Virus record (IMG/VR): IMGVR_UViG_3300025122_000146
Location: 1-24,691 of that record
Origin: a virus
Lineage: Duplodnaviria; Caudoviricetes
Length of the DNA stretch: 24,691 nucleotides
Reading direction: 5' to 3' (one strand)
Shown: in pieces, positions 1,843 through 24,690 of the stretch
How the letters are laid out: the number at the start of each line of letters is the position of its first letter
Numbering within the stretch: position 1 is the first letter of the stretch
The notes under the pieces: generated by a model
What the model was told of the DNA's origin: nothing
Seen by the model: the letters and a program-made list of their open reading frames with translations, nothing else
Databases searched by the model: none
Position numbers and translations under genes: made by a program

Positions 1843-2045
1843 TGCCCCAGAGTAATACTAAGAAGAGAAGGCTTATAGATGAGAACATCCACTGGCTGAT
1901 ACAGGATCCTCCTGTCGGCCTAACACCCGGTGACATAGCTACTCTCAGGCTAGGGCTAGAGAAGATGTCCACTGAAGCCAACGAGATTCTACGTAATAGT
2001 CTGCGCCATAACCCCCACCCCTCAAGGAGAAATAACAATGAATAG
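1839..2045 (+). CDS. Hypothetical protein (68 aa)
   Basis: SD AGGAGGT; start overlaps the upstream stop (GTGA). Confidence 0.65.
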   Translation: MMPQSNTKKRRLIDENIHWLIQDPPVGLTPGDIATLRLGLEKMSTEANEILRNSLRHNPHPSRRNNNE

Positions 2046-3645
2046 TCTTCGCCTACCCCCACTCTACCGAGGCTCCGTACCTGTCACTGTCCCTGGTGTC
2101 AGCGTACGAGGGAGCACTAACACTGGCCCACCACAGAACTGCCGTCTACTACTGAAAGGAAACGTAGTTCCTATGTCATTCACTATTGATCCGCTTGAGT
2201 CTCCCGGTAAGGAGATTCATCCTTGGGTACTAGACTGGCTCACTGACTACCAGCGAGAAGCCTGGAGGTATGCCCACAATCGTAGCGGCGCTAACCTATG
2301 GCATGCTTGCGGCGCAGGTAAGACAGCTACTGCTATCTGCTGGGCTCTCTCTGGTAGGTGGGAAGGGCCCATCATTGTAGTCACCAAGGCACCTACTAAG
2401 AGGCAGTGGAAGAGGGAAGTAGAAAGGTTAACTACTATCCACCCCACCATCCTCTACGGGCAAGACCCACAGAAGCTAGAGAAAGATGTACGCATGGTCA
2501 TCCTTAGCTGGGAGATCCTACCTCACTGGGTAGGTGAGCTTACCCGCTGGATTGGTGGCGGCATGGCTAGCGTAGTCTTCGATGAGATACACAAAGCCAA
2601 GGCATGGCAGCGTAAAGAGAAGTACGTAAAGGACGATGGCTCCGTAGGCTGGCAACCTAAGCGTAACATCTCGCAGTGTGCCTCCATCCTCTCAGCTAGA
2701 GCCAAGCGCAGGCTAGGGCTAACAGCTACTCCTGTACGTGATAGGATCTCAGACCTCTGGTCACAGCTTGACTTGATTGAGCCTGATTGCTGGGGTACTA
2801 ACTGGGAGTTCGTTCACAGGTACTGTGACGCTCAGCCAGGTAAGTTCGGTGGGATCGACACCACAGGTAAGAGTAACATAGATGAGCTACGGCTGCGCTT
2901 CTCCCAGGTATGCCACGTAGTCTCCTACACCCAGATGTCTACACAACTACCAGCTAAGCGCAGGCAGCTATGCTACCTGTCCCGTGAAGACCAGAGTAGA
3001 CCGAGTGCTTTTTCTGCTGACCTTAAGCAGGCAGCACGTAAGGGAGCCCAAGCTTTATTCGAGATGCGACTACTAGAAGCAGCTAGTCGTAAGCGTAAGT
3101 GGATAGTAGAGACAGTGGTCGAGGCAGTAGAGAACAAACAAAAGGTAGTGGTATTCACTGGCCGAAGGGTTGACTGCGAGCGTATAGCAGAGGCAATCGA
3201 GAAGGCTAAGCCTGAGCACGTACCTCTTTGGTGGGGGCATGGCGGGGTATCTACCACTGAGCGTGATGCTATGGTTGCTGCTTACTCTACCTGCGAAGAG
3301 GCGTCTGTCTTTGTTGGGACTACTGACGCTTTTGGTGAGGCTGTTGATGGGCTGCAACATACAGACCTAGCCTTGTTTGGACTACTACCATGGACTCCAG
3401 GTCAGGTAACCCAGGCAGAAGGGCGCTTCAGTAGGCAGGGATCAACGCGACCTGTCCTCATTATGTACACCGTAGCCGAGGGTACTGTTGACGAGCACGT
3501 AGCTGACATCTTGCTTAACAAACTGGAAGCAGTGGGTGAGGCTTTAGAGGATGACGAAGCGGTGGGTGTGGCTGGCACCCTGGCTGGTGAAGAGGACGAG
3601 GCAGCAATCATAGCTAACATACTCGCCAAGGCTAACGTCGGATGA
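2038..3645 (+). CDS. SNF2-type superfamily 2 helicase
   Basis: LTDYQ Q-motif, motif I CGAGKT, motif II VVFDEIH, motif III LTATP, DLWSQL, motif VI QAEGRFSRQG. Alternative in-frame start at ATG2173. Confidence 0.93.
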   Translation: MNSLRLPPLYRGSVPVTVPGVSVRGSTNTGPPQNCRLLLKGNVVPMSFTIDPLESPGKEIHPWVLDWLTDYQREAWRYAHNRSGANLWHACGAGKTATAICWALSGRWEGPIIVVTKAPTKRQWKREVERLTTIHPTILYGQDPQKLEKDVRMVILSWEILPHWVGELTRWIGGGMASVVFDEIHKAKAWQRKEKYVKDDGSVGWQPKRNISQCASILSARAKRRLGLTATPVRDRISDLWSQLDLIEPDCWGTNWEFVHRYCDAQPGKFGGIDTTGKSNIDELRLRFSQVCHVVSYTQMSTQLPAKRRQLCYLSREDQSRPSAFSADLKQAARKGAQALFEMRLLEAASRKRKWIVETVVEAVENKQKVVVFTGRRVDCERIAEAIEKAKPEHVPLWWGHGGVSTTERDAMVAAYSTCEEASVFVGTTDAFGEAVDGLQHTDLALFGLLPWTPGQVTQAEGRFSRQGSTRPVLIMYTVAEGTVDEHVADILLNKLEAVGEALEDDEAVGVAGTLAGEEDEAAIIANILAKANVG

Positions 3646-3824: not shown

Positions 3825-4027
3825 GGTGCCCCAAGTGTTGGGCAGCACCGGGTACAAAATGCATTAGTCTAAGGTGGGCAAGGTCCAGGGGGAGACAACC
3901 CGCAGTGTCTTACAGCCGCGACGGGGATTACCAAGGACGCGATAGCCCTGATGACCACAGGATTGAGAAGCCTCATAAAGAACGCATAGATAAGAGCATC
4001 ATCTCACCAGGAGCACGCTCACTATGA
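3806..4027 (+). CDS. Small zinc-finger protein (CPxCxAxPGxxC...HxxR)
   Basis: CPKCWAAPGTKC...PHKER; SD AGGAGAGG upstream. Confidence 0.7.
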   Translation: MDTLRVRCPKCWAAPGTKCISLRWARSRGRQPAVSYSRDGDYQGRDSPDDHRIEKPHKERIDKSIISPGARSL

Positions 4028-4992
4028 TCTGTAATGGCTGTGGGGCAGAAGCCTTCGGTCCATGTGGAGATCCCACCATCCCTAAAGGATGGATCAGTAA
4101 GTACTACAGCTACCACGACAGCGTGTATGGCTGCTCACAAGAATGTTTAACAATAGCAAAGGAGAAGAGAACAGTGACTAAGAAACTAATCAATGCAGGC
4201 CCATCCGAGGCAGGATGGCACAGACTACAGAGTGTGCTTAAGTGCCCACGCTACTACGTACTGGAGAGAGACCGCCCTTGGAAGTGGAGCCCTCCTCTAG
4301 TGAAGGGGTCGCTAGTCCACATTGGACTCGCCCACCACTACCGCAGGGTGCAAGCAGAACAGCAAGGGGAAGACCCTGACCAATGGTATGAACCTATGGA
4401 AGCAATCGCTAAGCTCGTCTTTGAGAACGCAGCAGACTCACCACACTGGATGGAGTATGCAGAGTTAGCCCAGGAAGCAGTGGGTAAGTACATCGTTGAG
4501 TGGGAGAGTGAGCAGTGGAAGGTACGTGCAGTGGAGCACGAGCTTCGAGCTATGGTAGACGGTAAGCACCTGTACACTCAGCGGGTGGATGCAATCTTCG
4601 AGGCTCCCGGCGGAAAGATATGGATGGTCGATCACAAGACTACCTTTCGTATCGCTCCGAAAACTATTCGACGTTACACATTGTCGGGTCAGATGCTGGG
4701 TTATCAGCTATTCGGACAGAAGCTTTATGGAGACAAGTTTGCAGGCGTCATGCTGAATATGATACAACTACCCCAAGAAGTTGGAAAGAATTACAGCTTC
4801 GCAAGACCAACGATTGAACCAGCACCCTTCGCAGTACCTAAGCTCAAACAGACTATCCTACACGCAGAAGAACTAATTGAAAGATACAAAGACAAAGACC
4901 CCATGGACGTACCCGGTGTGTTTCACGAGACAGCATGCTGGACTCCCTATGGTCAATGTCCCTTCGCTTCCTACTGTCAGTGGGGGTCATAA
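4024..4992 (+). CDS. Cas4-like PD-(D/E)XK exonuclease with 4-Cys Fe-S cluster and N-terminal zinc ribbon
   Basis: KCPR, GSLVH, EHEL, RVD...MVDHKT, QMLGY, and C-terminal C-x6-CPF-x3-C. Confidence 0.88.
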   Translation: MICNGCGAEAFGPCGDPTIPKGWISKYYSYHDSVYGCSQECLTIAKEKRTVTKKLINAGPSEAGWHRLQSVLKCPRYYVLERDRPWKWSPPLVKGSLVHIGLAHHYRRVQAEQQGEDPDQWYEPMEAIAKLVFENAADSPHWMEYAELAQEAVGKYIVEWESEQWKVRAVEHELRAMVDGKHLYTQRVDAIFEAPGGKIWMVDHKTTFRIAPKTIRRYTLSGQMLGYQLFGQKLYGDKFAGVMLNMIQLPQEVGKNYSFARPTIEPAPFAVPKLKQTILHAEELIERYKDKDPMDVPGVFHETACWTPYGQCPFASYCQWGS

Positions 4993-5210: not shown

Positions 5211-6113
5211 ATGACTAAAGCTAATGAAATATTTGGGATCATCTATGGTCCCGCTAAACGAGGTAAGACAGTAGCGGCTATCCGTTCCTTCCCCACTGGA
5301 TTCTTTATCTCACCCAAGGGTGGGATGCTGAGTTCCAACTGGCTAGGATGGGAGCCCAAGAGCATAGAGGCCACAGGCTTTGACCAGATTATGAACATCT
5401 TGTCTAAGCCACACAATCACCCAGCTATCATCATTGATGACTTCAGCATCATTGCTGATGCAGAGCTTGGTAAGCTTAAGAAGACACACCGAGGGTGGTC
5501 AGCCTTCGATGTCTTTAACGCAAAGGTCTACGAGCTACGTGACTGTGCAAGGGAGGCTAACTGCCATGTCATCCTCATCATGCATGAGCAACCACCACGC
5601 GAAGTGAAGAAGGATGGCGGCGGTAAGTACATCCCTGGTGCCCCACTCATCCCTGGCTGGCAGTTACCTGAGAAGCTACCTGCTCTGGCTGACTTCGTAG
5701 CTAGGGTAGTACACACCGATGACTTCCCTGGTCCTTGGCCGTTTGTCTTTCAGACAGGACCAGACCAGAACTACATCACAGGTGACCGACTCGCCATTAC
5801 TCCACCACTTAGCCCAATGAACTTAGGGGAAACCCTACGTGCTGCTGGCTATACCATCCCTCGACCTGAGCCCCTACTCTGGATGGAGGATGCGGTGGAA
5901 AAGATTTCTCAACTATTAGTTCAACAAATGCAAAAGGAGGAGCCTAACTTTCAACCAATACTCAAGGCGGCAGCTACTAAACTAACTGCCAAGGTAAGTG
6001 ACAAGCGTCATATCAGGTGGGCTTTGTTAGACTCGTTTGATCGAGCGTACCTGAAGATTCATTCAACCAATCTAGTCGATGACTTCATTGAGTCATTCGA
6101 CGTAGCAATCTAA
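5211..6113 (+). CDS. AAA_24/Sak4-like P-loop ATPase (putative single-strand annealing recombinase)
   Basis: IYGPAKRGKT Walker A, IIIDD Walker B, HVILIMHE; typical position between an exonuclease and an SSB. Confidence 0.8.
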   Translation: MTKANEIFGIIYGPAKRGKTVAAIRSFPTGFFISPKGGMLSSNWLGWEPKSIEATGFDQIMNILSKPHNHPAIIIDDFSIIADAELGKLKKTHRGWSAFDVFNAKVYELRDCAREANCHVILIMHEQPPREVKKDGGGKYIPGAPLIPGWQLPEKLPALADFVARVVHTDDFPGPWPFVFQTGPDQNYITGDRLAITPPLSPMNLGETLRAAGYTIPRPEPLLWMEDAVEKISQLLVQQMQKEEPNFQPILKAAATKLTAKVSDKRHIRWALLDSFDRAYLKIHSTNLVDDFIESFDVAI

Positions 6114-6129: not shown

Positions 6130-6669
6130 ATGTCCTGGGAAATCGAAGTCAATCTATCTGGTGTCAACGCAGCGGGGATGAATGTCCCACCAACGGAGAA
6201 GGGGCCCTACAAAGTTAAGGTCTTTTCAACTGAGAAGCGTGACACTCAAGCCGGTAACCAACGCGCCATCTTCCGTACTATCGTACAAGAAGGCAAGTAC
6301 AAAGGATGCAGCATCTCTGACGGGATTAACTTCCCCAAGGATCCTGAAGACTTTGTTAAGCGTTACTGGAAGGCAATGCTCATCTCACTTGGCTTCTCTG
6401 AAGCTAAGCTTGATAAGGGTATTAAGCTCAACGGAAGCAAACTTGTGGGGAAGATCGGCTACGTCTTCTTCTCCCCGGCTGACCAGGAAGGCAGCGGCTA
6501 CTCTTCAGTGAAGTGGATTCCTAAAGAGCAGTACGAGCAACTGGTTGCCTTGGCGGCAGCGACTAATGAGGGCTTTGATGTAGAGGAAGACAACGACAAT
6601 GGTGTCACTACCTCAACTGCTACCCCTAGCAGCGATGGTAAAGACGCTCTGTCCTTCCTCGAAATCTAA
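6130..6669 (+). CDS. DUF669-like single-stranded DNA-binding protein
   Basis: GPYKVKV...TQAGN...FRTIVQEGKYKG OB-fold-like pattern; acidic tail ending in hydrophobic residues; strong SD GAGGAG. Confidence 0.72.
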   Translation: MSWEIEVNLSGVNAAGMNVPPTEKGPYKVKVFSTEKRDTQAGNQRAIFRTIVQEGKYKGCSISDGINFPKDPEDFVKRYWKAMLISLGFSEAKLDKGIKLNGSKLVGKIGYVFFSPADQEGSGYSSVKWIPKEQYEQLVALAAATNEGFDVEEDNDNGVTTSTATPSSDGKDALSFLEI

Positions 6670-6677
6670 ACTCAACC

Positions 6678-6709
6678 TAAGGAGTCCTGCCTTCGGGCAG
6701 GGCTTCTTA
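6678..6709 (+). terminator. cUUCGg-capped stem-loop between ssb and polA (terminator/attenuator or mRNA stabiliser)
   Basis: TAAGGAGTCCTGCC-TTCG-GGCAGGGCTTCTTA: 14-bp stem with G-U pairs; weak U tract. Confidence 0.75.
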
Positions 6710-6722
6710 CCCCAGGTGGCCC

Positions 6723-9182
6723 ATGAGACCAAGATGTGATCTATGCCCTCTGCGTATGCATTGGGAGAACAAAGGTAACTGGCGCATAGTAGACTCTGAG
6801 ATTAACGAGGACACTTCTATCCTCCTGATCGGAGATGCTCCCGGTAAGCAAGAGACCCTCTTCAACCGTCCCTTCGTAGGACCAGCAGGTGTTGAAGCCA
6901 TAGGTGTTCTACGTGACTGCGGTAGGGTCAGGCACGATGTGTCATGGACTAACGTCTGTGCCTGTCGCTTCCCTAAAGACAATGACAAAGAGTTCTTAGC
7001 TATCCTTCAGAAGAGGAACAGAGCTAGGATAAAGAAAGGGAAGGAGCCTATCCCTACCCCTATGGAATGCTGCCGCCCACGACTAGAGGCAGAGATAGCA
7101 CAGTTCCCTTCCATCATTCCACTAGGGTCGATGGCTACTAAGGCTGTACTCCCAGGCAACCCAAGCCTTAGTAAGGTACGGGGTGGTCCAACAGTACATC
7201 TAAATAGGAAGGTGCTACCTACCTTTCACCCTTCGTTTGTTAGGTACAAACCTATCTGGCGAGACATCTTTCGCTCTGACATAGCCAAAGCTTTCCGTCA
7301 CTTCGAGGAGAAGCTACGCTGGAAGGATCCCCGTACTGTCTTTACACCTACACCAGCCCAGCTAGAAGCCTTTCTCAGGCACGTAGAGAAGACACGGGAG
7401 CCAGTGGCCTACGACGTAGAGACAGACGCACTGGAGCCCCTTACAGCAGGGCTAAGATGCATCGGGATTGGGACACCAGATATAGTTCTCATGGTCCCCT
7501 TCCTCTCCGTCGATGGTACGGCAACATTCTATGAGCCCCAAGAGGAACTGACGATCAAGAAACTGATGCGCGAGTTCTTCCTCAGTGAACGCATCTGTAA
7601 GGTGGGACATAACGCTGGCTACTATGATCGCTTGGTTGTCGAGCAACATTTAGGGGTAACTCCTACGCCTCTCATAGATACCATACTCTTGCACCGTTTG
7701 GCAGAAAGCGAGTACCCGCATGGCCTTGGCTACATCGGCTCGGTCTTCACTGACGTGCCAGCGTGGAAAGCAGATAGGACAGCGACTACTGCCAGTGCTG
7801 ACCACGAGCTTCATGTGTACTGCGCTACTGACGTTGCCGTCACAGCCCGCATCACTCAGCCCCTTCTAGCTAAGGCCAAGATTCGCAGGCAACGTAAGAT
7901 CTACAAAGTCGATGCAGCCTTGCAAGACTTATGCGTAGGGATGCATAGGTTAGGTATGCGCGTTGACGAGGGCAAGCGTAAAGAGTATGCCCAGAAGCTG
8001 ACGGCTGAAGTTTATGAGTGGGAGAGTCTTATTGACGATAGGCTAGGTTCTCGTACGATCAACCCAAATAGCCCTGTGCAAATGCGGGAGCTACTCTTCG
8101 ATCGATGGGCTCTCCCTCCTCATTCCTTTACGCCTACCGGCGACCCCAGTGCTAACGATGCTACCCTGCGTTCCTTCTTAGGCAATCCCTTAGTAGAGGA
8201 TGACCAGAAGGAAATCATTGATGCACTGCGGCGTTACCGTAAGGCATCTAAGTTACTCAACACTTACATCGAGAAGCTAGCACCAGGGGCTGGCGTCGTG
8301 GAAGATGGCATAGCCTACCCAGACTACAACGTACACGGTACGGTTAGTGGTAGGTTTAGTAGTTCCAACCCCAACTTCCAGAACATTCCCTTTAAGCTAC
8401 GCGATATGTTTATCCCACCTAAAGGGATGGTCTTCGTGGGTGCTGACTTCGACCAGCTTGAGCTACGCTTTGCTGCTGCGTTAGCAGGGGCTAAGCACTA
8501 CATGGATGCGTTCGAGAAGAAAGAGATAGACCCACACAACCTGACGGGTGAGCTTATGTTCGGTGAAGACTTCTGGCTTTCACCGGGAGCCCCAGCCAAG
8601 AAGATAGAGAAGGGGAAGGGTTCCTTTAAGAAGCTAAGGGATGTAGCTAAGACCATCTGCTTCTCCTCGTTGTACGGGGCATCACCTCCCAAGGTGCATG
8701 AGATCATTACCAAGGCAGAGGATGACCAGGGTACTCTCATGTACGCAGGCTATTCACTGCAAGAAGTGCGAGCCCTGCATCGTAAGTGGCTACGTGCGGC
8801 CCCTGAGTTTAAGGGATGGTGGAACGAGACACACCAGTTCTGGCGAAGGAACGGTTACGTGGAAGAGCCAGTGATGGGTAGGCGCAGGTACTTCATAGAG
8901 GATGACTACAATGCCATCATCAACTTCGGAGTACAGGCAGGCGGCTTTAGTGTAGTCGCCATAGGGATGCTGGAGTTAGTGAATAACTACCTTCCCTTTG
9001 ACTTCAAGAAGAACACAGGTCTTGTTAACCAACTGCATGACGCAGTCTTGTTTACAGTGGAGGAGGGGAAAGCAGACTGGGCACGCGAAGTTATCACCAA
9101 GGTGCTCACACGTAGGGTTAAAGCCCTACCGATTACGTTCACAGCGGAAGCTAATATTGCTAACAACTGGGCAGAAGTTTAG
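6723..9182 (+). CDS. polA: Family A DNA polymerase with N-terminal family-4 uracil-DNA glycosylase domain and 3'-5' exonuclease
   Basis: UDG4: CDLC, IGDAPG, PFVGPAG, TNVCACR, TFHPS. Exonuclease: YDVET, GHNAGYYD, YCATD. Polymerase: SGRFSSSNPNFQNIP, ADFDQLELR, RDVAKTICFSSLYG, QLHDAV. Confidence 0.95.
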   Translation: MRPRCDLCPLRMHWENKGNWRIVDSEINEDTSILLIGDAPGKQETLFNRPFVGPAGVEAIGVLRDCGRVRHDVSWTNVCACRFPKDNDKEFLAILQKRNRARIKKGKEPIPTPMECCRPRLEAEIAQFPSIIPLGSMATKAVLPGNPSLSKVRGGPTVHLNRKVLPTFHPSFVRYKPIWRDIFRSDIAKAFRHFEEKLRWKDPRTVFTPTPAQLEAFLRHVEKTREPVAYDVETDALEPLTAGLRCIGIGTPDIVLMVPFLSVDGTATFYEPQEELTIKKLMREFFLSERICKVGHNAGYYDRLVVEQHLGVTPTPLIDTILLHRLAESEYPHGLGYIGSVFTDVPAWKADRTATTASADHELHVYCATDVAVTARITQPLLAKAKIRRQRKIYKVDAALQDLCVGMHRLGMRVDEGKRKEYAQKLTAEVYEWESLIDDRLGSRTINPNSPVQMRELLFDRWALPPHSFTPTGDPSANDATLRSFLGNPLVEDDQKEIIDALRRYRKASKLLNTYIEKLAPGAGVVEDGIAYPDYNVHGTVSGRFSSSNPNFQNIPFKLRDMFIPPKGMVFVGADFDQLELRFAAALAGAKHYMDAFEKKEIDPHNLTGELMFGEDFWLSPGAPAKKIEKGKGSFKKLRDVAKTICFSSLYGASPPKVHEIITKAEDDQGTLMYAGYSLQEVRALHRKWLRAAPEFKGWWNETHQFWRRNGYVEEPVMGRRRYFIEDDYNAIINFGVQAGGFSVVAIGMLELVNNYLPFDFKKNTGLVNQLHDAVLFTVEEGKADWAREVITKVLTRRVKALPITFTAEANIANNWAEV

Positions 9183-9190
9183 GAGGACAA

Positions 9191-10381
9191 ATGCCATATA
9201 TCACCAAAATAGAAACTAACATTAAACGACCAGGGGGCGTAGTCCATGTAGGACTAGAGCCTCACATGCTGCTGATAGGAGACAACGGCAGCGGCAAGAC
9301 AGCCATACTCAATGCGATTGAGTTAGCCTTAACTGGGCAAGCTCATGACCTCGGAGGTAGGGACAACGCTAAAGCTACAGTGCTGCTTCAAAGCCTCATA
9401 CCAGCATGTGATGATTTTCTTTATAGCATCATCACTTTTGATACAGGGGCTACCGTTGAGTGGCGTATGCAGAGAGGCAAGAAGCCCACTGTTAACTGGG
9501 AGTTCACACCGACTGACCTGAACGTACACTTCCTCATGGACGAAGTAAGCGATGCGTTAACGGGCTCTTTGTTAACTACTGTACGCTTCCTCATGAAATA
9601 CTTTGGGGATGAGCCTGAGTTCCTAGAGAGGGAAGAAGCTGCACGTAGAGCAGTGAGGCGAGAGCAAGCTACCGTCCGGGCTGTGACCACAGCCATCGAG
9701 CATCTCTCCCTGGTTAATCACTCAGGAGAAAGGAAGAAGGAAGCGGTCATTGCTCAGGCTGTAGTTGACCTCTACGAGAATGCAGGCATAACTGTCACTG
9801 GTTCTCGCAACACCTACGACAAGGCTAAAGCGTACATAGATAAGCATGGTGCCCCCATAGCTAACCGCGAAAGCCTTCTCTTTGAGACGAAGAAAGAAGC
9901 AGAGGGGAGGTTGGCAGCGGCGAAGAAGCAGGCTAAGGAGAACCTTGACTACATGGTAACGTGGGTAACTGAGGAACAAAAGGACATAGAATCGTCCTTC
10001 AACCTACTTAGATCAAGGGCTTTACCGGGGGAGATTGGTTTTGAAATCGACACCACACGTATTCTATTCGGACTTAGGACGGAAGGTTCCTTTACTCCTT
10101 GGATTTCTGGGGCTGAGTATGTTGCTGTACTGGCAATCGTGGCAGCGACGGCGGCATTACGGCTACCGTCCGAGGACGTAGTGTTAATCATTACGCCCGA
10201 TCGAGCGTTATCGCACAGGCATCTACATGCTCTGGTAAATGCACTGCGACCTGTTAACCGAGCCAACATCTTTATCCAAACTCCTACAGTTGTCCCGGTG
10301 AAATCTTTCCCGGCATGGACGAAGCTTTATCTTGAGCATAGAGCCGTAGGCAAGAGGTGGATGAAGCAACAAAGTGGCTAA
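9191..10381 (+). CDS. Short Rad50/SbcC-like ABC ATPase with degenerate C-terminal motifs
   Basis: LLIGDNGSGKTAILNAIELALTG Walker A, short helical middle, ISGAE signature; strong SD AGGAGG. Confidence 0.8.
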   Translation: MPYITKIETNIKRPGGVVHVGLEPHMLLIGDNGSGKTAILNAIELALTGQAHDLGGRDNAKATVLLQSLIPACDDFLYSIITFDTGATVEWRMQRGKKPTVNWEFTPTDLNVHFLMDEVSDALTGSLLTTVRFLMKYFGDEPEFLEREEAARRAVRREQATVRAVTTAIEHLSLVNHSGERKKEAVIAQAVVDLYENAGITVTGSRNTYDKAKAYIDKHGAPIANRESLLFETKKEAEGRLAAAKKQAKENLDYMVTWVTEEQKDIESSFNLLRSRALPGEIGFEIDTTRILFGLRTEGSFTPWISGAEYVAVLAIVAATAALRLPSEDVVLIITPDRALSHRHLHALVNALRPVNRANIFIQTPTVVPVKSFPAWTKLYLEHRAVGKRWMKQQSG

Positions 10382-10521: not shown

Positions 10522-10749
10522 CTACCCTGCTGCCTTAAGCATAGCCTGTAGGAGAGGGCCACCGGCCCCCCCGGCTAAGGCTGCTCCACCAACCAGGAAG
10601 AACATCTTAGTTATCTGCGCTTGAATGTTTGTACACGTCTTCTCAATGTCCGCTACGTTAGTACGAAGCTCGATGATAGACTCGACTTGCTTGTCACTAC
10701 GCTCACGTAAGTAGCGCAGTTCGTCAAGCAGGAAATCATTCGTTGCCAT
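10522..10749 (-). CDS. Coiled-coil plus C-terminal TM protein (XhlA-like/holin-like lysis accessory)
   Basis: Heptad region then MFFLVGGAALAGGAGGPLL; directly downstream of the endolysin; ATG10749 is the likelier start. Confidence 0.6.
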   Translation of the reverse strand: MATNDFLLDELRYLRERSDKQVESIIELRTNVADIEKTCTNIQAQITKMFFLVGGAALAGGAGGPLLQAMLKAAG

Positions 10750-11191
10750 CGTCGTGCCGCTCCCAAGCAATGTAGGATCCGTCTATCTTCTTTAATAATA
10801 ACTGACGCCTGTTCTTTTTGCGAGTGGTATGGCTGATATGGATGTGACCAGTGGTCTCCTTATACCAGATAGCTTGATCAACAGGCCACCCCATTTGTGT
10901 CATCTTAACGATGTAATCCCACACTTCTGCTGTATCCACATCGGGGCAGTAAAAATCACAAGCCTCGGCAGTAACATGCTGGCTAGACTTTGAGCCCCCC
11001 ACGGTTCGGTTAACGTATTTATCCCTGAACCCAGACGTTATCTTGATCGGACCAAAGCGGTCGCGGATAGGCTGAAGGATAGCAGAGCAGAGAGCCAGCA
11101 CACGCGGGACGTAGTGGGCAGGCAAGATGTTGGTTGCCTCTACGCTCGTTACCTCAAACTCTTCGGCGCTGAAGTTAGGTGTGAGTCTCAT
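10736..11191 (-). CDS. Peptidase M15A-family Zn peptidase, probable endolysin
   Basis: LTPNFSAEEF, LQPIRDRFG, ITSGFR, NRTVGGSKSSQH, ACD, HIHIS. Confidence 0.92.
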   Translation of the reverse strand: MRLTPNFSAEEFEVTSVEATNILPAHYVPRVLALCSAILQPIRDRFGPIKITSGFRDKYVNRTVGGSKSSQHVTAEACDFYCPDVDTAEVWDYIVKMTQMGWPVDQAIWYKETTGHIHISHTTRKKNRRQLLLKKIDGSYIAWERHDDGNE

Positions 11192-13677
11192 ATCTCGTCG
11201 CCTTCTTCATCTTGCTGAAGGTAACGTCTTCCAGCTTCTGCTGGTACGAGGTAGGGAGCTATAGATTTCATTGTGTCAGGATCTTTGGAGTAAGTACCAG
11301 GGTTGGCAACTGCTTTTAGTTGATTGCTATTAAATACCATCCATTCTTTCGGGGCTCCATCTCTTATACGGACCACACTGTCATAGCCAAGATCTGCTAA
11401 GTGCTCAGTTACAGCCCTGCTAAGATCCCCATTGTCCCAGTCAATAGGTGTGTCGCCTGCCAAAACTGTGAGTTCGTGTACCTTGTCTTCGATTTCTTTT
11501 GGTAAAGGAGCATTCTTCTTTAGGCGCTGAACCATTTCCTCTATGCTGTAGCCCATCCCTTCAGATGCATTACGATACTCAAGCTCTTTCCATTGTTGAA
11601 CAAAATAACCAAGCCCTCGTTTGTGCCACTCAAAGGGGTTTTCCATCCTTACGTGAAAAGCATACACACCGGGGCGTCCTCCTTCTGCTTCTTGAAGCAG
11701 CTTATCGCGGAGTACTCGCATCAGAGTAAACTCCTCGGCTAGCATACCATCCCCATCTGCTGCACCTGGAGGAAAAGTTGAAGAAGTCGTGGTATCCTGC
11801 AATGCGTAGTTACGCTTCTGTACAGCCTCAAGTCTTTTCTGTAGTTCTTCAGGTGTCTGTTTCCACATCTGAAGCTCTTGTATCTGCCCATTTAACCTGT
11901 CAAGCGCACGCGCAGTCTCGGAAAACTCATTATCAAAGACATCGGCTTTACCGTTGTCCTTTACTCTGGCAATCTGTTTTTGTTTTATTTCTATCTGCTG
12001 CTGAAGAGTTGCAGGGTCATCCTCGTAAGTAATATTTTGTTTCTTCCATACGTCTATGGGCTGTTGGGCGTAGCCCGCTTCCTCGAATAGATTTTTCGGA
12101 CCAATACCCGTAGTACTGTAGCCTTGAGCCTCCCAAGGGTTATTAGAAAGGTAAATCCCTGCCCCAAACCAGCCTGGATCCGTCTGCTGCTGGATGTCGC
12201 TACCTGTTTTCATAGTGGTGTGGCCTGCTTTTTTTGATCCGTGGAAGAAGACTGTGGGCTCACCTACCTTAGTGCTGAGTCCTTGGTCTGCTCTCCACCG
12301 TATCGAATACCAATCACTTTGTAGTTTCTCTATCGCTTTTTCTACTTCCTCTCGCTTCAAGTACATCTCGTGCTCGCTCTCAGCCGCTATTTTATAGAAA
12401 GTATCTTTCTTACTCTCGAATCTTAAGAACGCTGTATGCCTTTCGTCTGCTGTCATGTTCTGCCATTCCGCAGACTCCGTGAGCTTCTTATGTTTAGCCT
12501 GGAGCCTCTCGATCTCTCTCCTGATATGAGTCGGGAGAAGAACACCGTCGCGCGGCCAGTTGTCCCGAGCGGTTCTACCAGATAAAGTTTTAAAGCTGTC
12601 ATCAAAGTACTCATCGAGAGCAATTTTCTCGGCTTTCATTTTATCTAGTGCGGCAACGACACCTTTATCATCTAACCATTCTCCCTTATGAAATGCATAA
12701 GGTGATCCCTGATTGAGACCCAGATGTGGTCTTTCCTGTGCCGCCTGTTCGGTCTTACCTCTCCACTCTTGAAAGCGCCCCTCCCTGCTGTTTGCAAACG
12801 CCTTCTTAGTTGCTTCTTCTTTAATGGAAGTTGCATCCCTAAAGGGTGATTCATACTCTTTAGAAGACGGTGGCAATAAGTCTTCGCCTCCCTCTAACAG
12901 ATCAACATCTGGTGTAACTTCGTCTGCTCCCTTAACGATGCCTCTTCTAGCAGCCTCTCCACCCTTTGTACCGAGCCGCCTTAAGTCTTCAACAGTCCCT
13001 GGTTTCAGAAGGTCTGGTGCTATCCGTAGTGGTCCTTCTAAAGCAGTAACTAGAGGTAGTGTGCGCCCTGTTTTTCCTAGATCCTGTGCAACCTTTGCCG
13101 CTGTCCTGACTTCTCTGGGTGCGTTCTTTGCTACTGACCACACGCCTTTGAAAGCTCCCTTAGCTAGTGGCCCGAAGACAGGGACTGCATTGGAAGCAAG
13201 ACCAAGCCCTGCTAAGACGGTAAGCGGTACAGCCCAGGGCTCTCCTCGTTCAACAGCAGCCCATGCGCGGGCAAGATCCTTAGAGTCGATGCCTGCGGAA
13301 AGCACAGGGTTAGCCATAGCTAAAGCTACTTCTGAGCCAATGACTGCCATGGGGTGCTCTTCTTCTAGCTGCTTGTAACGTGCGGCAACAGCTTTGGTCT
13401 TAGCCTTTAGCTCTACATTGAGGTCTAGTGGAGGCGTAGTCCCTAGTCCTCCTGCCTTTGCTCGCTGTATCCGTCGTGGTGCTGCCTCTTTGGTGCGCTG
13501 CTGCTTAGCGAAAGTCTCTGTTGCTTCTTTGGCTTTACCCTCTGGCCCCACAGGTTTAGGGGGAGCCACAGGTTTACCATAAGCCATGGCAGGTCGCTGC
13601 TCTTGCTTGAAGTGCTGCTTCCTATACTTATTTTGTATAGCCTGTGCAGTGGTAGGCTCCTCTACTTCTTCCATCAC
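11188..13677 (-). CDS. 829-aa protein with pre-toxin-TG-like hydrophobic segment and C-terminal ADP-ribosyltransferase (ART-PolyVal-like) domain
   Basis: VFFHGS, FGAGIYLSNNPWEAQGY, VYAFHVRMENPF, LGYDSV, EWMVFNSNQLK, NPGTYS; N-terminal LAGLGLASNAVPVFGPLAKG. Confidence 0.78.
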   Translation of the reverse strand: MMEEVEEPTTAQAIQNKYRKQHFKQEQRPAMAYGKPVAPPKPVGPEGKAKEATETFAKQQRTKEAAPRRIQRAKAGGLGTTPPLDLNVELKAKTKAVAARYKQLEEEHPMAVIGSEVALAMANPVLSAGIDSKDLARAWAAVERGEPWAVPLTVLAGLGLASNAVPVFGPLAKGAFKGVWSVAKNAPREVRTAAKVAQDLGKTGRTLPLVTALEGPLRIAPDLLKPGTVEDLRRLGTKGGEAARRGIVKGADEVTPDVDLLEGGEDLLPPSSKEYESPFRDATSIKEEATKKAFANSREGRFQEWRGKTEQAAQERPHLGLNQGSPYAFHKGEWLDDKGVVAALDKMKAEKIALDEYFDDSFKTLSGRTARDNWPRDGVLLPTHIRREIERLQAKHKKLTESAEWQNMTADERHTAFLRFESKKDTFYKIAAESEHEMYLKREEVEKAIEKLQSDWYSIRWRADQGLSTKVGEPTVFFHGSKKAGHTTMKTGSDIQQQTDPGWFGAGIYLSNNPWEAQGYSTTGIGPKNLFEEAGYAQQPIDVWKKQNITYEDDPATLQQQIEIKQKQIARVKDNGKADVFDNEFSETARALDRLNGQIQELQMWKQTPEELQKRLEAVQKRNYALQDTTTSSTFPPGAADGDGMLAEEFTLMRVLRDKLLQEAEGGRPGVYAFHVRMENPFEWHKRGLGYFVQQWKELEYRNASEGMGYSIEEMVQRLKKNAPLPKEIEDKVHELTVLAGDTPIDWDNGDLSRAVTEHLADLGYDSVVRIRDGAPKEWMVFNSNQLKAVANPGTYSKDPDTMKSIAPYLVPAEAGRRYLQQDEEGDEI

Positions 13678-19023: not shown

Positions 19024-22000
19024 TTATTCGTCCTCCTGCCTTTTAGTTTTTTGAATCAGTTCCCAAGCGGCTTGTCTTTCAGCGGCTGAGAGTTCTTTAG
19101 TTGTAGCACGTTTTCTCCTCTCGTAACCCCACTCCATCTCTTGAAGAGGGTTAATGGGGTATGGCTTAAAGCTAGTTAAGCCTCGCATGGCATACCATAT
19201 CCCTTCGGCATTACTTCTTGCCCAGGCTGGATTCTCTGCCGCTGCCCAGAAGGTAGGAAGCTGTGTCCCTATGAATGGGAGCATACGAAAGAGGTCAACC
19301 ACCATCGCTGGTGCTTTCACCTTACTGTGGGGAGTTTCTTGCTGGGGTGTCATCCAGTCGGGATTCCCTGAACTCACACCCGGTATTAAACCTTTAAGTG
19401 TACCGTACCCAGATAGAACCTCAGCTTCACCAGGACGTAATGTAGACAAGGCACCTGATCCCCAGAAGGAATCGCCAGTTAACGAATCCAGGTAACCACC
19501 AAATGTCTGGGAAACTGGTGGCAGAAGCATATTCATTAGTGGGTCATAAGACTGTTTCATCCAGTCATCAGTCATAGGAACACCCGCTAAGTGGGCGGAT
19601 ACCCCGACCAGACCAGCCATTGTAGTCATACCTAACTGTGCCCCATCGAAAGGCGTGAAGGCAGGCATCAATGTAGTCTCATGTGTGATCCCAGACTTGC
19701 CCTTTTTCGCCCAGTATTCTCGGTCCATTGGGTCCATTGGGTAACTGTTGAGGGGCGGACGTGTATGATTCCACCAAGGACCAATCTCACGCAGCCCCCG
19801 TGCTAGAGTGTCGCCCTCTAAGGTGTTGCGCTGTTGCTGCTCACTACCCCAGTAAGTTGCATCACTTACGACATTCGTACCCTGAACCATCTGTCGCAGC
19901 TTGCCTAGAGATGTGTTGCCTGCCACAATGCTTTTAGCTGAGACAGGTGCAGTGAAAGGCTCCAGCAGCATTGAAGCTGTCTGCTTCATCATCAAGCGGT
20001 AGAACCTATAGAAGGTCGAGACCTGAGCGAAGACCTTCATCTCAACAGCAGTGAGCGGATCCTTCCAGTCATACAGAGTTCTCCGCAGCGCCTCCGTTGC
20101 CTCTTTACGATTCATCCCCTTACGTCGCATTTCCAGGTAGAAAGCCGCTCTTTGCCGTTGCTGAACAAAGGTCGCATGGGAAGAGTACATTTCACCGTGG
20201 ACGTTTTCTTTCCAGAGCTTATTCTTAAGCTTAGTTGGAAAAGCTAGGAGGGATTCTTTGGAGGCTTTCTCCGCCGCTTCTCGCAGAGTTGCATGAACAA
20301 ATGTGTCCATGACACCGTCAGCATCCAGTTGCTTACGCAAGGTGCCAACGTCCATAAGCTGATTACCCAACTGGATAAGCTGGTCATCGGCTGCTCTCCA
20401 TACCTTGTCCAAGTCAGGGTTAAAGATTGCGTTTGTTATGGGAGCTAAGACATGATCAGACCCAAGCTTGGCTTGCATCTGTAGCTGTTTGTTATGTAGC
20501 TGCCTACCCCAAGGCATGTTCATAGCGAAGTTCTGAAACGAGAGCGTAGTCGCTGTGCCCAGCCCATGCCCCCACCACATCTGAGCAAAGTCACCAAAGA
20601 TGTTGTTCACCCAGTAACGAGGGTTAGGGACGAGCAGCCCAGAAACTAGCGACGTGCGGTACAAACGCCAGAAGCCATTCATGGCACTACCTAGTCCCAG
20701 ATCATCACGCCCACGAGCATTGTATTTCCATGTCTCTTTAACAATCTTACCTGCGGCTTTGTCAATCTCACTAATCAAAGTCGTAGGTAGAAAGGAGTTA
20801 ATCCCGTCAGGGTTCTTAGAGATCCTTACGAGATCGATCACCTTTCGTTTTTGCTGCGTAACCAAAGTAGGATCAATGACAGAGATGCCGTAACGTGCCA
20901 TGGCATCAAACCCAGCGGCAATACGAGCATCCGTGACATCTCCCACTACCCCTGCACCACCTGGCGTAGCCAATAGCTCCTCAGGGTGCCACTGTAGCTT
21001 CTTGCCCTCTGCTCTGGCGCTCTTTGCGATTGCGGCACCACCACCTGTGAGGATGTCGCTAGCATCAGCAGCAGCTTGCGTCGTAATCCCCCCGACCATC
21101 TTAGTTGCTGTGCGTGCGGCGTCATTAAGCACCATTGCATGCCCGATCCCTAAAGCCCCGAAGGAGTAGGCTTTGGTAGCATCATCAACGCTACCTGCTC
21201 CGCCCCAGTTAAGATTAAAGGTGTAGCCATCCTTTTTGCTATGAGCCCCTGCGTTCTTCGTGGCTTTCTTCATCTCTAGCATTAAAGCATTGAAGTCCAG
21301 AGCATCGTCATCATACTGTTTCTTAATGATGTTGTAGGCAATCTTCCGTAGCTCAATCATACGTCCTGGTGGAAACGTCTCTTGCGGGAGCCATGCCCGT
21401 GCGATGGCATCCAAAGCTTTGGTGTCCCCTACGTCTTCGGCTAACTTGTCTGCCTTAAGGATAACCTTGCCACCTTTCTCTTCGATTATCCGTGAGTCTT
21501 CCACGATCTGCTCAACACCTTTCCGGTAGATAGATGCGGAACCGGTGTTGACTGAGGTCCATCCGTTACGTAGCTTCATGGGGTTCGTGGACATTAGGTA
21601 CGTTGCAAGTACCCGAATAGGGCTATCATTAGGATTCAAGCGAATCAAATCATGGATCTCATCTTCAAACTTAGCTCTTACCTGAATGGACCGCTTTAGG
21701 ATCTCAGTCATGTCTTGGCCCAGATCACCAAGTCTTTGAGAGGCAGGGGAGATCTTCGCGAATATCTTGCGAGGGACACGACTTAGATCAGCCGCATACT
21801 GCCATTTACCTAGCTCTGTGAGCTTAAAGCGTACAGGTAAATAAGGCGAGTGCATAGCATTCAGCAGTACCTCTGCCTGCCGATGGCTGGCAAACTTACC
21901 CCCAATCATAGGGGCTAGCCTCTCCAGAGCTTCGACACCTGCCTGGAAATCGGCAACTTCCTTCCCAGTCAAGACAACCCTATCTGACGTAGCCTTTTCA

Positions 22001-24690
22001 GCCTTCAGCTTCGCTATGACTCGACCGAAGCGTGCGGCCTCTTCCCCTCCTTGGACGTTAAAGGGGCCCATAACTGTCTCGTCAAAGGTATCGTCGATGG
22101 ATTTTACGAGGATGTTTGGGTCTACTATCCTCTCAAACTCAGCCAGTTCTTTCTTTGTCGCCTTGGCTAAGATGTCTGCCCCGGCAGTAATCCTAGACTG
22201 TACACCCTGTAAAGGAGTTTTCCCTGTACGTGCGTGCTTGATTATAAGACCAAGCAGATCGGCAACTTTACCCATCTCCTCACGGTATAGCTCTTCGACG
22301 TTAAGGATTCGTCGTTGCTCTTCTGCTATTGCTACTTTGCGGCCTGCCTTTGCACCCGCAGCCCTAATAGCTTGCTTGCCATGCTTATCCTGCATCTTCT
22401 GTAGTCTTTCAGCTAAGCCAGCACGGGTCTTTGCAGGTTTCCCTTTAGGCGTAAACTTCCCTGGCTTAACTCCTGCCTTAGCGTTTAACCGCTGGGCCAA
22501 GCGAGCCTGTTGGACGCGCATCTTTTGAAGCCTGCTCTGTGCAACCATAAAGCCTGCGTGTTTCTTAAACCAGATTAGGTTAGCCATTCTGCCTTCGAGT
22601 AAGGCTCCTCGCTCCAAGAACCGTAAGCTGGTGGCAGGCTTAGGGAGCATAAGAAGATCAGTCGCAGCCTCTGCCTGGGCTTTTGTCCAGCCTTGGAGGA
22701 CTAGCTCCTCTTTAATGCCGATCACCCTTGCGCCTTTTTTAGACCACCCTGGTCCTGGTTTAGGCTGGCGTAGCCCTTTAAGCCCTCCATCGTAAGTCCC
22801 ATCAGCGTGCCTGACGGCTTTAGTTTTAAGGTAATGGTGTAATAGGGATAGTTTCTCTGTTGAAATACCAGTGTCATAGATTTTCCTCAACGCTTCTGTA
22901 AGCTCAGGGAGTTCTTCTAGTTGTTGCCTAGTCCTCTCTGCGGCTGCTGGTAGGCCTTTCTCTAAACCCTTCAGTCGCTGTGCAAAGAGGGGAAAGGTCA
23001 GTACTTTACCGGCTTTGTCTTTTAAGACGAACCCTGGCTTGACATTCAGGAGATCTGTCTCTAGCTTCATAGTAGCTTTCGCTGCGTCTAAAGCAATGTC
23101 AGCCGCTTCAAGCTCTGTCTCTGCCAGCTTAACTTCAGCCCTGAACTTCTCTTCTTTAAGCCAGCGTACTCTGGCCGCATCCTCTGATAGCTTGATCTTT
23201 CCCTCAAGCCCCTCAATCTTCTTCTGGGCAGCTTCTTTACCTCTTTGTAGCCCGACAAGATGGACCTCTTGTACTGGCTCAGTACCAACACGTAGCCCTA
23301 ATGCTGCGGCAGCATAGTCACCTAGTGCTTGGTCCTGATGACGTAACTCGTTGATATGAGTTGCTATAGAGGAATCAAACTCAGTGGGATCCTCCAGCTT
23401 TGGTCTTAAGAGAGCCTCGTCTGGTAGCAGGCTCTGCTCTCTCGCTAGCTTCTCAGTCTTCTGTAACTTATGTACCCTAGTTAAAGGGATCCTACCGGAC
23501 CTCCATAACGCTTTCACAGGTTTCGTAGCAGCAAAGATTGGTAGCGTTAAGATGTCTGGGTCTAAGAGAATAAGACCAAACATCCCTGCTAGTCCAAGAG
23601 CCACCTCTGGGCCTCTGTTCCCTAGCTGCTCTCGCTGCAAGGATGGCGGAGTAAGGAACTTAGCTACGATACCGAAGTCATCAGTAATGTCGTAGCCTTC
23701 ACGGATAAGTTTGATATGCTCGTCACTTCCCCATTCCCCGGCGTGAAGTGCTGCTCCCACCATCGTCGAGAGAGCTTGTCTACCAAACCATTCGAGACCC
23801 CCTTCCTTACCGAGAGTCTCTGGGGCTCGACCAAAGTATTGATCCTGCGTCTGTAGACCAGCCCACATTGCCCTAATAGGTGCCGTTACCCTTCCACCTG
23901 CCCAGGCTGGGTTGTTGATAATATTCTGGGTTGTACCGTCAGGATCCACATCAACCCAAAGGGTTCCTGTGTTTAAAGCTGTGATCTCCCGCATTCGTTT
24001 CTTTGCGCGTTCTAGTGACCTGTTAAAGAGATCTTCATCCTCTTCTTTTGATAGGCTAGCCCAAGTCCGACCTGCATGTGCCATCTCCTCCATCCTATAA
24101 GACATCGCTAAGCGACTGATGGAATCATACACATCGATTGCTGTATCCCCTTGCAATGAGTCTGTGAGAGGGAGTACAAATCGAGCCCCGCGTTTACGTT
24201 TATGCTCAGCTATCTGGGCCAATCGTCTGCCTTCCGGGGTGTCTGTCCGTGTAACAGCGTCCTCGAAAGTTACAACCGTCCCCTCTTTGTCAGATAACTC
24301 TTGGAGTAGCTCCCACTCTAACTTAGAGTGTGCCAAAGCTTTTTGGTAATCTGCTGGAATGACATTGATTGTTTCTAGCACACCCTCAGGAGTACCTACC
24401 TTTTCAATTCCTTTAGTAAAACGTCGATGCTTAGCGGCTTCTGTTTCTTTCTCAGTCTTTATACGTGAAAGCTCTAGGTACTGAGGGTTACCTTCTGTGT
24501 CTGTGTATTCTGCACCCCAGACCTGTAGGTCTTTTGGTGTTAGCTTGTCGCGTGCTAGATCTAAAGATTCCTTAGCCTTTTCGCTAGCAACCAGCATCGA
24601 GTAGAGTTGAGGGGCTTTCTCTTTTGGTAGGATATAACCAAACCGTTTCTTTAACTCAATCTCAGCAAGCTTCTGTACATTCTCGTCTTT
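19024..24690 (-). CDS. Giant (>1880 aa) probable internal virion/DNA-ejection protein, 5'-truncated
   Basis: The frame stays open from 24597 to the window end. Largely helical, with NPRYWVNNIFGD and a C-terminal amphipathic region (RMLPF) typical of large podovirus-type internal proteins. Confidence 0.75.
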   Translation of the reverse strand, partial: KDENVQKLAEIELKKRFGYILPKEKAPQLYSMLVASEKAKESLDLARDKLTPKDLQVWGAEYTDTEGNPQYLELSRIKTEKETEAAKHRRFTKGIEKVGTPEGVLETINVIPADYQKALAHSKLEWELLQELSDKEGTVVTFEDAVTRTDTPEGRRLAQIAEHKRKRGARFVLPLTDSLQGDTAIDVYDSISRLAMSYRMEEMAHAGRTWASLSKEEDEDLFNRSLERAKKRMREITALNTGTLWVDVDPDGTTQNIINNPAWAGGRVTAPIRAMWAGLQTQDQYFGRAPETLGKEGGLEWFGRQALSTMVGAALHAGEWGSDEHIKLIREGYDITDDFGIVAKFLTPPSLQREQLGNRGPEVALGLAGMFGLILLDPDILTLPIFAATKPVKALWRSGRIPLTRVHKLQKTEKLAREQSLLPDEALLRPKLEDPTEFDSSIATHINELRHQDQALGDYAAAALGLRVGTEPVQEVHLVGLQRGKEAAQKKIEGLEGKIKLSEDAARVRWLKEEKFRAEVKLAETELEAADIALDAAKATMKLETDLLNVKPGFVLKDKAGKVLTFPLFAQRLKGLEKGLPAAAERTRQQLEELPELTEALRKIYDTGISTEKLSLLHHYLKTKAVRHADGTYDGGLKGLRQPKPGPGWSKKGARVIGIKEELVLQGWTKAQAEAATDLLMLPKPATSLRFLERGALLEGRMANLIWFKKHAGFMVAQSRLQKMRVQQARLAQRLNAKAGVKPGKFTPKGKPAKTRAGLAERLQKMQDKHGKQAIRAAGAKAGRKVAIAEEQRRILNVEELYREEMGKVADLLGLIIKHARTGKTPLQGVQSRITAGADILAKATKKELAEFERIVDPNILVKSIDDTFDETVMGPFNVQGGEEAARFGRVIAKLKAEKATSDRVVLTGKEVADFQAGVEALERLAPMIGGKFASHRQAEVLLNAMHSPYLPVRFKLTELGKWQYAADLSRVPRKIFAKISPASQRLGDLGQDMTEILKRSIQVRAKFEDEIHDLIRLNPNDSPIRVLATYLMSTNPMKLRNGWTSVNTGSASIYRKGVEQIVEDSRIIEEKGGKVILKADKLAEDVGDTKALDAIARAWLPQETFPPGRMIELRKIAYNIIKKQYDDDALDFNALMLEMKKATKNAGAHSKKDGYTFNLNWGGAGSVDDATKAYSFGALGIGHAMVLNDAARTATKMVGGITTQAAADASDILTGGGAAIAKSARAEGKKLQWHPEELLATPGGAGVVGDVTDARIAAGFDAMARYGISVIDPTLVTQQKRKVIDLVRISKNPDGINSFLPTTLISEIDKAAGKIVKETWKYNARGRDDLGLGSAMNGFWRLYRTSLVSGLLVPNPRYWVNNIFGDFAQMWWGHGLGTATTLSFQNFAMNMPWGRQLHNKQLQMQAKLGSDHVLAPITNAIFNPDLDKVWRAADDQLIQLGNQLMDVGTLRKQLDADGVMDTFVHATLREAAEKASKESLLAFPTKLKNKLWKENVHGEMYSSHATFVQQRQRAAFYLEMRRKGMNRKEATEALRRTLYDWKDPLTAVEMKVFAQVSTFYRFYRLMMKQTASMLLEPFTAPVSAKSIVAGNTSLGKLRQMVQGTNVVSDATYWGSEQQQRNTLEGDTLARGLREIGPWWNHTRPPLNSYPMDPMDREYWAKKGKSGITHETTLMPAFTPFDGAQLGMTTMAGLVGVSAHLAGVPMTDDWMKQSYDPLMNMLLPPVSQTFGGYLDSLTGDSFWGSGALSTLRPGEAEVLSGYGTLKGLIPGVSSGNPDWMTPQQETPHSKVKAPAMVVDLFRMLPFIGTQLPTFWAAAENPAWARSNAEGIWYAMRGLTSFKPYPINPLQEMEWGYERRKRATTKELSAAERQAAWELIQKTKRQEDE

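Follow-up and report, generated by a model that had tools for sequence, protein, structure and literature searches.

The window analysed here (the whole stretch of 24,691 bases, a virus record from an uncultured marine phage, estimated to be 47% complete) contains a reading frame in which a uracil-DNA glycosylase (UDG) fold precedes a proofreading family A DNA polymerase (PolA). The original prediction described the glycosylase as apparently intact and suggested that the polymerase might excise uracil during replication. The fusion itself is already known, and Czernecki et al (2023) left undecided whether domains of this kind work in uracil repair or only in support of processivity (PMC10201439). 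The question raised by this locus is what the UDG domain does for the polymerase that carries it.

A family-4 UDG fold joined to a family A polymerase

The frame encodes 819 amino acids without an internal stop (6723-9182, + strand; Table 1), and Pfam recognizes in it the three predicted domains: UDG (aa 26-177, E 1e-16), DNA_pol_A_exo1 (aa 210-382, E 8e-12) and DNA_pol_A (aa 420-818, E 2e-52). AlphaFold2 modelled the protein from a 113-sequence alignment with a mean pLDDT of 94.5; a model of the UDG domain folded from its single sequence (pLDDT 34.5) was discarded. Foldseek matches were dominated by polymerase chains. Residues 1-197 of the model aligned with the Thermotoga maritima family-4 UDG 1l9g (Z 21.8, rmsd 2.4 Å, 172 residues) and with Thermus thermophilus 1ui0 (Z 20.7), and family 4 was nearer than 2d3y (Z 17.4) or MUG 2c2q (Z 13.3); the UDG fold on which the prediction had been made to depend was thus recovered. 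The exonuclease and polymerase part adopts the Klenow fold (1d9d, Z 34.6, rmsd 3.4 Å, 560 residues aligned), and the Exo I-III and Pol A/B/C catalytic residues that define a family A DNA polymerase are present. Position 647, equivalent to E. coli 762, is Phe.

Table 1. Features of the polymerase gene and its neighbourhood in the window (counts are loci carrying the neighbour among 81 compared, many of them short)
Feature	Position	Strand	Evidence
SNF2-type helicase, replication module	2038..3645	+	Pfam; 58/81 loci
PD-(D/E)XK exonuclease	4024..4992	+	Pfam, PHROG; 45/81 loci
Sak4-like single-strand annealing protein	5211..6113	+	PHROG; 75/81 loci
Single-stranded DNA-binding protein (SSB)	6130..6669	+	Pfam, PHROG; 63/81 loci
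Stem-loop, SSB gene to polymerase start	6675..6716	+	-25.6 kcal/mol, z -3.2
UDG-exo-PolA gene, 819 aa	6723..9182	+	ORF, Pfam, AlphaFold2
Family-4 UDG-fold domain, aa 1-197	6723..7313	+	Pfam, HMMER alignment, fold match
Basic-helix insertion following motif 3, aa 88-104	6984..7034	+	Alignment gap, model
3′-5′ exonuclease, aa 210-382	7350..7868	+	Pfam, conserved D231, E233, D302, Y366, D370
Family A polymerase domain, aa 420-818	7980..9176	+	D575, K643, F647, Y651, H772, D773
SMC/SbcC-like P-loop ATPase, directly downstream of polymerase	9191..10381	+	Pfam; 64/81 loci

The fusion of the UDG domain to the polymerase in one chain is real. An assembly or frameshift artefact was ruled out because a 55-kb contig (L150) carries the same gene at 99% identity, because a contig of sequencing run X3 spans 6700-7345 with 8 differences and 0 gaps, and because most of the 120 top homologs listed have this three-domain make-up as well. 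Within the UDG part, L150 and the window differ at 8 synonymous and 0 non-synonymous codons. Apart from the possible source run, the two other runs sharing at least half of the sequence words were, by the tool's count, marine or seawater metagenomes, and no RNA dataset sharing them was among the runs listed.

The homolog search retained 527 proteins out of 7,999 scored candidates, the top 72 being 51-67% identical to the window protein (the query itself set aside). Among the best 150 clusters at 50% identity matched by the UDG domain, PolA was found in all 124 proteins of at least 600 aa, and "uncommon", as the fusion had been called, is therefore too strong. Among GenBank phages, identity was ~25% and 77 of 50,697 records covered 80% of the protein; the best match was the Rctr197k PolA (APU88859.1; 25.7%, E 5e-65). 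These cluster counts and identities indicate that the fusion is widespread and that the clade of the window protein has no close cultured member in the GenBank phage collection. The 642-aa members of one cluster, which seemed to be UDG-less, start at an internal Met, and at the one locus inspected (L013) the upstream frame is open. A search of shorter proteins gave 26 matches, two being contig-end fragments of relatives and the others distant UDG-type proteins, with no close stand-alone UDG copy among them (12 inspected). Single-protein and exact-DNA scans of viral contigs returned no match, and identity as DpoZ was rejected (67.9 bits against a cut-off of 500). Inteins or LAGLIDADG domains were seen in 13 of 26 scanned longer UDG-PolA relatives (P0199-P0289). 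A literature search, whose scope excluded most subscription journals, found no paper on this clade or on the decay of its pocket.

The precedent that had been cited from SPO1-like phages holds, with SPO1-, N4- and SP15-like UDG-PolAs all published. According to Czernecki et al (2023), the N4-like enzymes are inactive, and the SPO1-like and unclassified ones keep catalytic residues (PMC10201439). The window protein lacks the properties by which the N4-, SPO1- and SP15-like groups are defined, which leaves it with the unclassified UDG-PolAs; its similarity to those groups was gauged by pairwise BLAST and one profile comparison. The SP15-like polymerases of phiLo and YerA41 likewise have an N-terminal UDG followed by exonuclease and PolA, the phiLo UDG being type IV with E53, N177 and H178, and the group is recognized by a length of at least 1000 aa, two inserts and a C-terminal domain (Missoury et al, 2026; PMC13697223); the window protein is shorter and has neither large inserts nor the C-terminal domain. 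YerA41 has 1306 aa compared with 819, its gp144 gave no significant BLAST match to the window protein, and whole-chain fold matches to SP15-like structures were weak (9qlh, Z 17.8; 9qhs, Z 14.8). N4-like PolAs of cluster 17 resemble the window protein in having 800-900 aa and unmodified DNA, and a processivity role was proposed for their UDG domain after its inactivation (PMC10201439). However, the catalytic residues of the N4 UDG are gone, whereas the window protein keeps the fold, the Fe-S ligands and four of six residues, and the N4 domain did not match the UDG profile of the window's clade (E 0.65). SPO1 gp31 is also a family-4-like UDG-exo-PolA, ~25% identical over 538 columns. Its UDG part (L121:12242-12832) lacks the Fe-S cysteines by alignment and shows QENP in place of motif 1, M in place of F54 and S in place of N80, making it less canonical than that of the window; SPO1 has been placed among the active fusions (PMC13697223).

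The groups also differ in gene content, for which we relied on relatives because the window is only about 47% complete. SP15-like genomes carry T-modification genes, PolX and a ligase, and SPO1 has hmU DNA and a dUMP hydroxymethylase. In contrast, dUTPase, ThyA (the thymidylate-synthase homolog), dCMP deaminase, ThyX and ATP-dependent ligase were each found in 0 of 23 related records, 15 of them at least 90% complete and one (G003) 100% complete and of the same sub-lineage as the window; control genes were detected in 5-12 of 14 genomes. When 12 near-complete genomes were compared with Pfam, no PolX, AP endonuclease or base-modification family came up; the comparison covered 77 of 82 shared clusters (the other five had been covered with the window itself) plus 134 singletons of at least 110 aa, leaving out 112 shorter ones, and most proteins had no match of any kind.

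The uracil pocket in the window protein and in its clade

Residues were mapped by HMMER alignment to Thermus UDGa (1ui0), in which E41, G42, E47, F54, N80, N89 and H155 correspond to D38, A39, E44, F51, N77, D86 and H169 of the window protein. The motifs quoted by the prediction are all present: those of the pocket, KQE (E44), PFVG (F51), TN (N77) and HPS (H169), make four residues the same as in Thermus, and CDLC (C5, C8), ACR (C81) and ECC (C117) supply four cysteines that align with the [4Fe-4S] cysteines of T. maritima and that we take to bind such a cluster. Two pocket positions differ. Motif 1 reads GDAPG (aa 37-41), as had been noted, rather than the family-4 GE(G/A)PG, so that D38 replaces E41; and the motif-3 Asn expected of family 4 (N89, which positions water in Thermus) is replaced by Asp86, a change that had been overlooked. 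The domain scores 70.8 bits against the NCBIfam model TIGR00758, under its curated cut-off of 125.3, and 51.4 bits against the UdgX model TIGR03914 (cut-off 189.95). No UdgX-type His lies within aa 81-117, and the place of the His-bearing loop that marks UdgX is occupied by the His-less helix aa 88-104. This insertion of ~20 residues is a gap in the Thermus and Thermotoga alignment and is missing from cellular family-4 enzymes. Thus, the stand-alone enzymes (1l9g, 1ui0) have in common with the window protein the fold, the Fe-S ligands and E47/F54/N80/H155, and differ from it at E41 and N89 (both Asp here), in the extra basic helix and in the polymerase fusion.

Substitutions at these positions have been assayed in Thermus UDGa on A:U, T:U, G:U, C:U and single-stranded U (Xia et al, 2017, Table S1; PMC5387724). 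On these substrates, in that order, E41D had 0, 4, 0, 9 and 0% of wild-type activity and was the most damaging of the four substitutions assayed at E41, while N89D had 5, 96, 70, 100 and 36%. E47D, E47S, H155A and H155S left activity near zero, and E41Q also lost binding to uracil-DNA (PMC5387724). These effects come from a single thermophilic enzyme and depend on context (i.e. G42D rescues E41Q; PMC5387724). Excision of uracil from single- or double-stranded DNA by the window protein is therefore predicted to be probably weak or absent. The description "apparently intact" is doubtful and appears overstated, because E41D is the most damaging change at its site, N89 is altered, and the pocket is gone in most of the clade.

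The last point emerged from 191 full-length homologs, 122 of which were retained at <90% identity and split on exonuclease and polymerase columns into clade A, which includes the window protein (73), clade B (43) and six others. On the same columns, an IQ-TREE tree of 50 rows gave 99/97 support to clade A, to clade B and to the window's sub-lineage; its base did not resolve and its outgroup branch was very long. No UDG-less full-length homolog was found among those examined. Of the 70 clade A proteins that could be scored (three gapped ones were dropped), none has the complete pocket E-E-F-N-H, compared with 27 of 43 in clade B. Clade A displays 35 distinct pocket states, and only three of the 70, the window protein included, keep all of E47, F54, N80 and H155. 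At the E47 position, clade A has D in 43, A in 20 and S in 4 of 73 proteins; the H155 equivalent is retained in 45/73, and Asp86 is near-fixed (69/73). The clade A changes at E47 and H155 match ones that eliminate or reduce activity in Thermus, which supports the interpretation that activity is weak. In clade A the pocket sites evolve at a median rate (48-58th percentile). They underwent 63 changes there and 22 in B (Fisher p 0.03 relative to the remaining domain), although matched resampling of this rate contrast gave p 0.079.

The scaffold around the pocket is constant. The Fe-S cysteines are retained in 122/122 (C81), 121/122 (C117), 116/116 (C5) and 117/117 (C8) proteins, and C81 and C117 in 150/150 of the wider set of best 50%-identity clusters. 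N99, within helix 88-104, is invariant (116/116 in A and B together), and P113, G135, R153, G154, D186 and the basic helix itself are unchanged in both clades; the median net charge of the C81-C117 segment is +5 to +6. Exonuclease residues D231, E233, D302, Y366 and D370 are invariant (122/122), and both clades show no or almost no variation at the carboxylates of the exonuclease and polymerase.

The two clades also differ at position 647, with Phe in 69/73 of clade A and Tyr in 43/43 of clade B. Among the unclassified UDG-PolAs, QDP60221.1 falls in clade B, and the Rctr197k PolA has the four Cys and a full pocket, with an insertion at the corresponding site; clade B has Tyr at 762, whereas the window's clade combines Phe with a decaying pocket. 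Phe or Tyr at this site has been linked to virulent phages (Nasko et al, 2018; PMC6302109). A coupling between Phe762 and pocket loss (full pocket in 4/76 Phe compared with 86/150 Tyr proteins) is unsupported, because only 8 independent pairs were available (p ~1) and the association is inseparable from ancestry.

On a tree of 240 proteins the pocket state changed at least 24 times, the direction of loss or regain resting on tree tips and a distant outgroup. Of the 148 clusters at 50% identity that could be scored, the other pocket residues were intact in 64/100 with E41 but in 4/20 with D41; the link of D41 to decay (p 0.0004 in raw counts) is not significant over independent pairs, which divide ~6 to 2 (p 0.29). 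The remainder of the pocket is intact in 13/67 of all D41 proteins and in 5/6 of those in clade B. The window's own sub-lineage of eight proteins, diverging down to ~58% domain identity, shows one change at the five pocket sites compared with 4.35 expected at the rate of the rest of A (P 0.069); this expectation is probably inflated by saturation, and the lineage had been selected for its intact-looking pocket. The clade B rate would give 2.4. P0078, which lies outside A and is 44% identical, has the same D-E-F-N-H pocket and Asp86.

Possible roles of the UDG domain

Editing and processivity roles have both been proposed for UDG-PolA domains (PMC10201439), and in the literature searched we found no demonstration of a processivity role for any of them. 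On balance, we consider it somewhat probable that the UDG domain of the window protein is an Fe-S-stabilized hold on DNA whose glycosylase activity is weak or absent. Two of its substitutions cripple the model enzyme and most close relatives have lost the pocket, so that DNA gripping is likely the main reason for its retention. In the model, the UDG fold, the proofreading exonuclease and the polymerase form one chain, and the exonuclease and polymerase residues are complete. In phiLo and YerA41 the UDG lies between the fingers and the exonuclease and contacts single-stranded template ahead of the active site (PMC13697223), and by analogy the domain would sit on the template side in the window protein. 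Judging from their conservation, the [4Fe-4S] ligands, R153-G154, R192 and helix 88-104 may hold the fold together and bind the DNA backbone, and such a grip would make the polymerase more processive or better at strand displacement in a phage without a recognized clamp. The Thermus mutants suggest that E44, F51, N77 and H169 could still accommodate a flipped uracil, although D38 and D86 would strongly slow its excision. Any abasic site would depend on host repair, since no thymine-modification or repair genes were recognized in these phages, and glycosylase activity would be dispensable and repeatedly lost. Of the functions originally suggested, the fallback of a processivity module or sensor thus fits the evidence best, and excision is made doubtful by D38/D86 and by pocket loss in the clade.

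The main alternative, which we judge possible but unlikely, is that D38, A39 and D86 are co-adapted in a functional glycosylase that, like the phiLo enzyme, removes template uracil just in front of the polymerase. Across from the resulting abasic site the polymerase would insert dA, leaving host enzymes to finish the repair, and dUTP misincorporation would thereby be corrected. Missoury et al (2026) determined structures of the phiLo and YerA41 proteins and described their uracil excision, establishing this mechanism in SP15-like enzymes; the main text mentions only exonuclease mutants (PMC13697223). Loss of motifs is no proof of inactivity, because YerA41 is reported to excise uracil with only VLIGY/MYSL as motifs (PMC13697223). 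Retention of the E47, F54, N80 and H155 equivalents, the 13 D41 proteins with an otherwise intact pocket and the main-chain contact of Thermus E41 with uracil (PMC5387724) are consistent with activity, as is the stable pocket of P0078 and of the sub-lineage, where a single change among eight proteins leaves a useful activity possible and counts against a domain that only grips. However, the sub-lineage result is not significant and concerns a lineage chosen for its pocket, E41D is the weakest of the four Thermus substitutions (PMC5387724), and 67/70 of clade A lost at least one of the four residues. Moreover, there is no ligase in the 23 relatives and no PolX match in the 12 near-complete ones.

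We regard as improbable a pocket that holds uracil or some other base uncut and thereby makes the polymerase pause or change its route, or a pocket of shifted specificity. Base-contacting residues are kept in the window protein, the altered positions are tied to placing H155 and water (PMC5387724), and the near-fixation of D86 would suggest a directed shift and not random decay. Nevertheless, Thermus E41Q also lost uracil-DNA binding (PMC5387724), the binding residues are gone too in most of clade A, E44, the gate that excludes thymine, argues against 5-substituted bases, and the relatives lack modified-base genes. We accordingly give little credence to the specific proposal that the D38/D86 pocket is a read-ahead sensor of template uracil built on an Fe-S glycosylase, the clade recording a passage from enzyme to sensor to DNA clamp. 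Finally, we consider it very improbable that the fusion serves specifically to overcome dCTP-deaminase or dNTP-depletion defences of the host: a general proposal of this kind exists for SP15-like phages (PMC13697223), but it requires an activity that is itself doubtful, dUTPase is found in 0/23 relatives, and repeated pocket loss (at least 24 state changes) indicates no general need for such a role.

What is new here is a series of compact polymerases of 820-880 aa with full, nearly full or ruined uracil pockets on a constant Fe-S scaffold, in phages without recognized base-modification genes. Three or four proteins of the series could address the choice between repair and processivity directly, and the series could reveal reuse of an Fe-S glycosylase fold as a built-in processivity module. 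Its value is moderate, chiefly for polymerase specialists.

Genome neighbourhood

The near-complete relatives have genomes of 46-60 kb. Six related contigs from metagenome-assembled genomes (33-42% identity) belong to several phyla and are too distant to name a host. The stem-loop ahead of the polymerase gene is a possible attenuator, and the terminator scan made no call there; long hairpins of unrelated sequence lie 3′ of the SSB gene in several relatives (34 loci, without a control). A D5-like primase-helicase, absent from the window fragment, occurs in 7/7 clade A genomes examined (e.g. G001, L085:3432-5906).

Beyond the ATPase gene, transcription directions converge at a Peptidase M15 endolysin-like gene (10736-11191, -). 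It is followed by a gene for an 829-aa protein (11188-13677, -) whose residues 471-568 form an ART-PolyVal ADP-ribosyltransferase domain (E 2e-10), a domain also found in a relative (L114:6291-7811). An ORF of at least 1857 aa without a Pfam or PHROG match (19024-24690, -) reaches the window end, and its cluster is present in 12/13 genomes. The related phage G002 carries a gene resembling that of the flagellar chaperone FliS (L087:8522-8941, E 6e-15).
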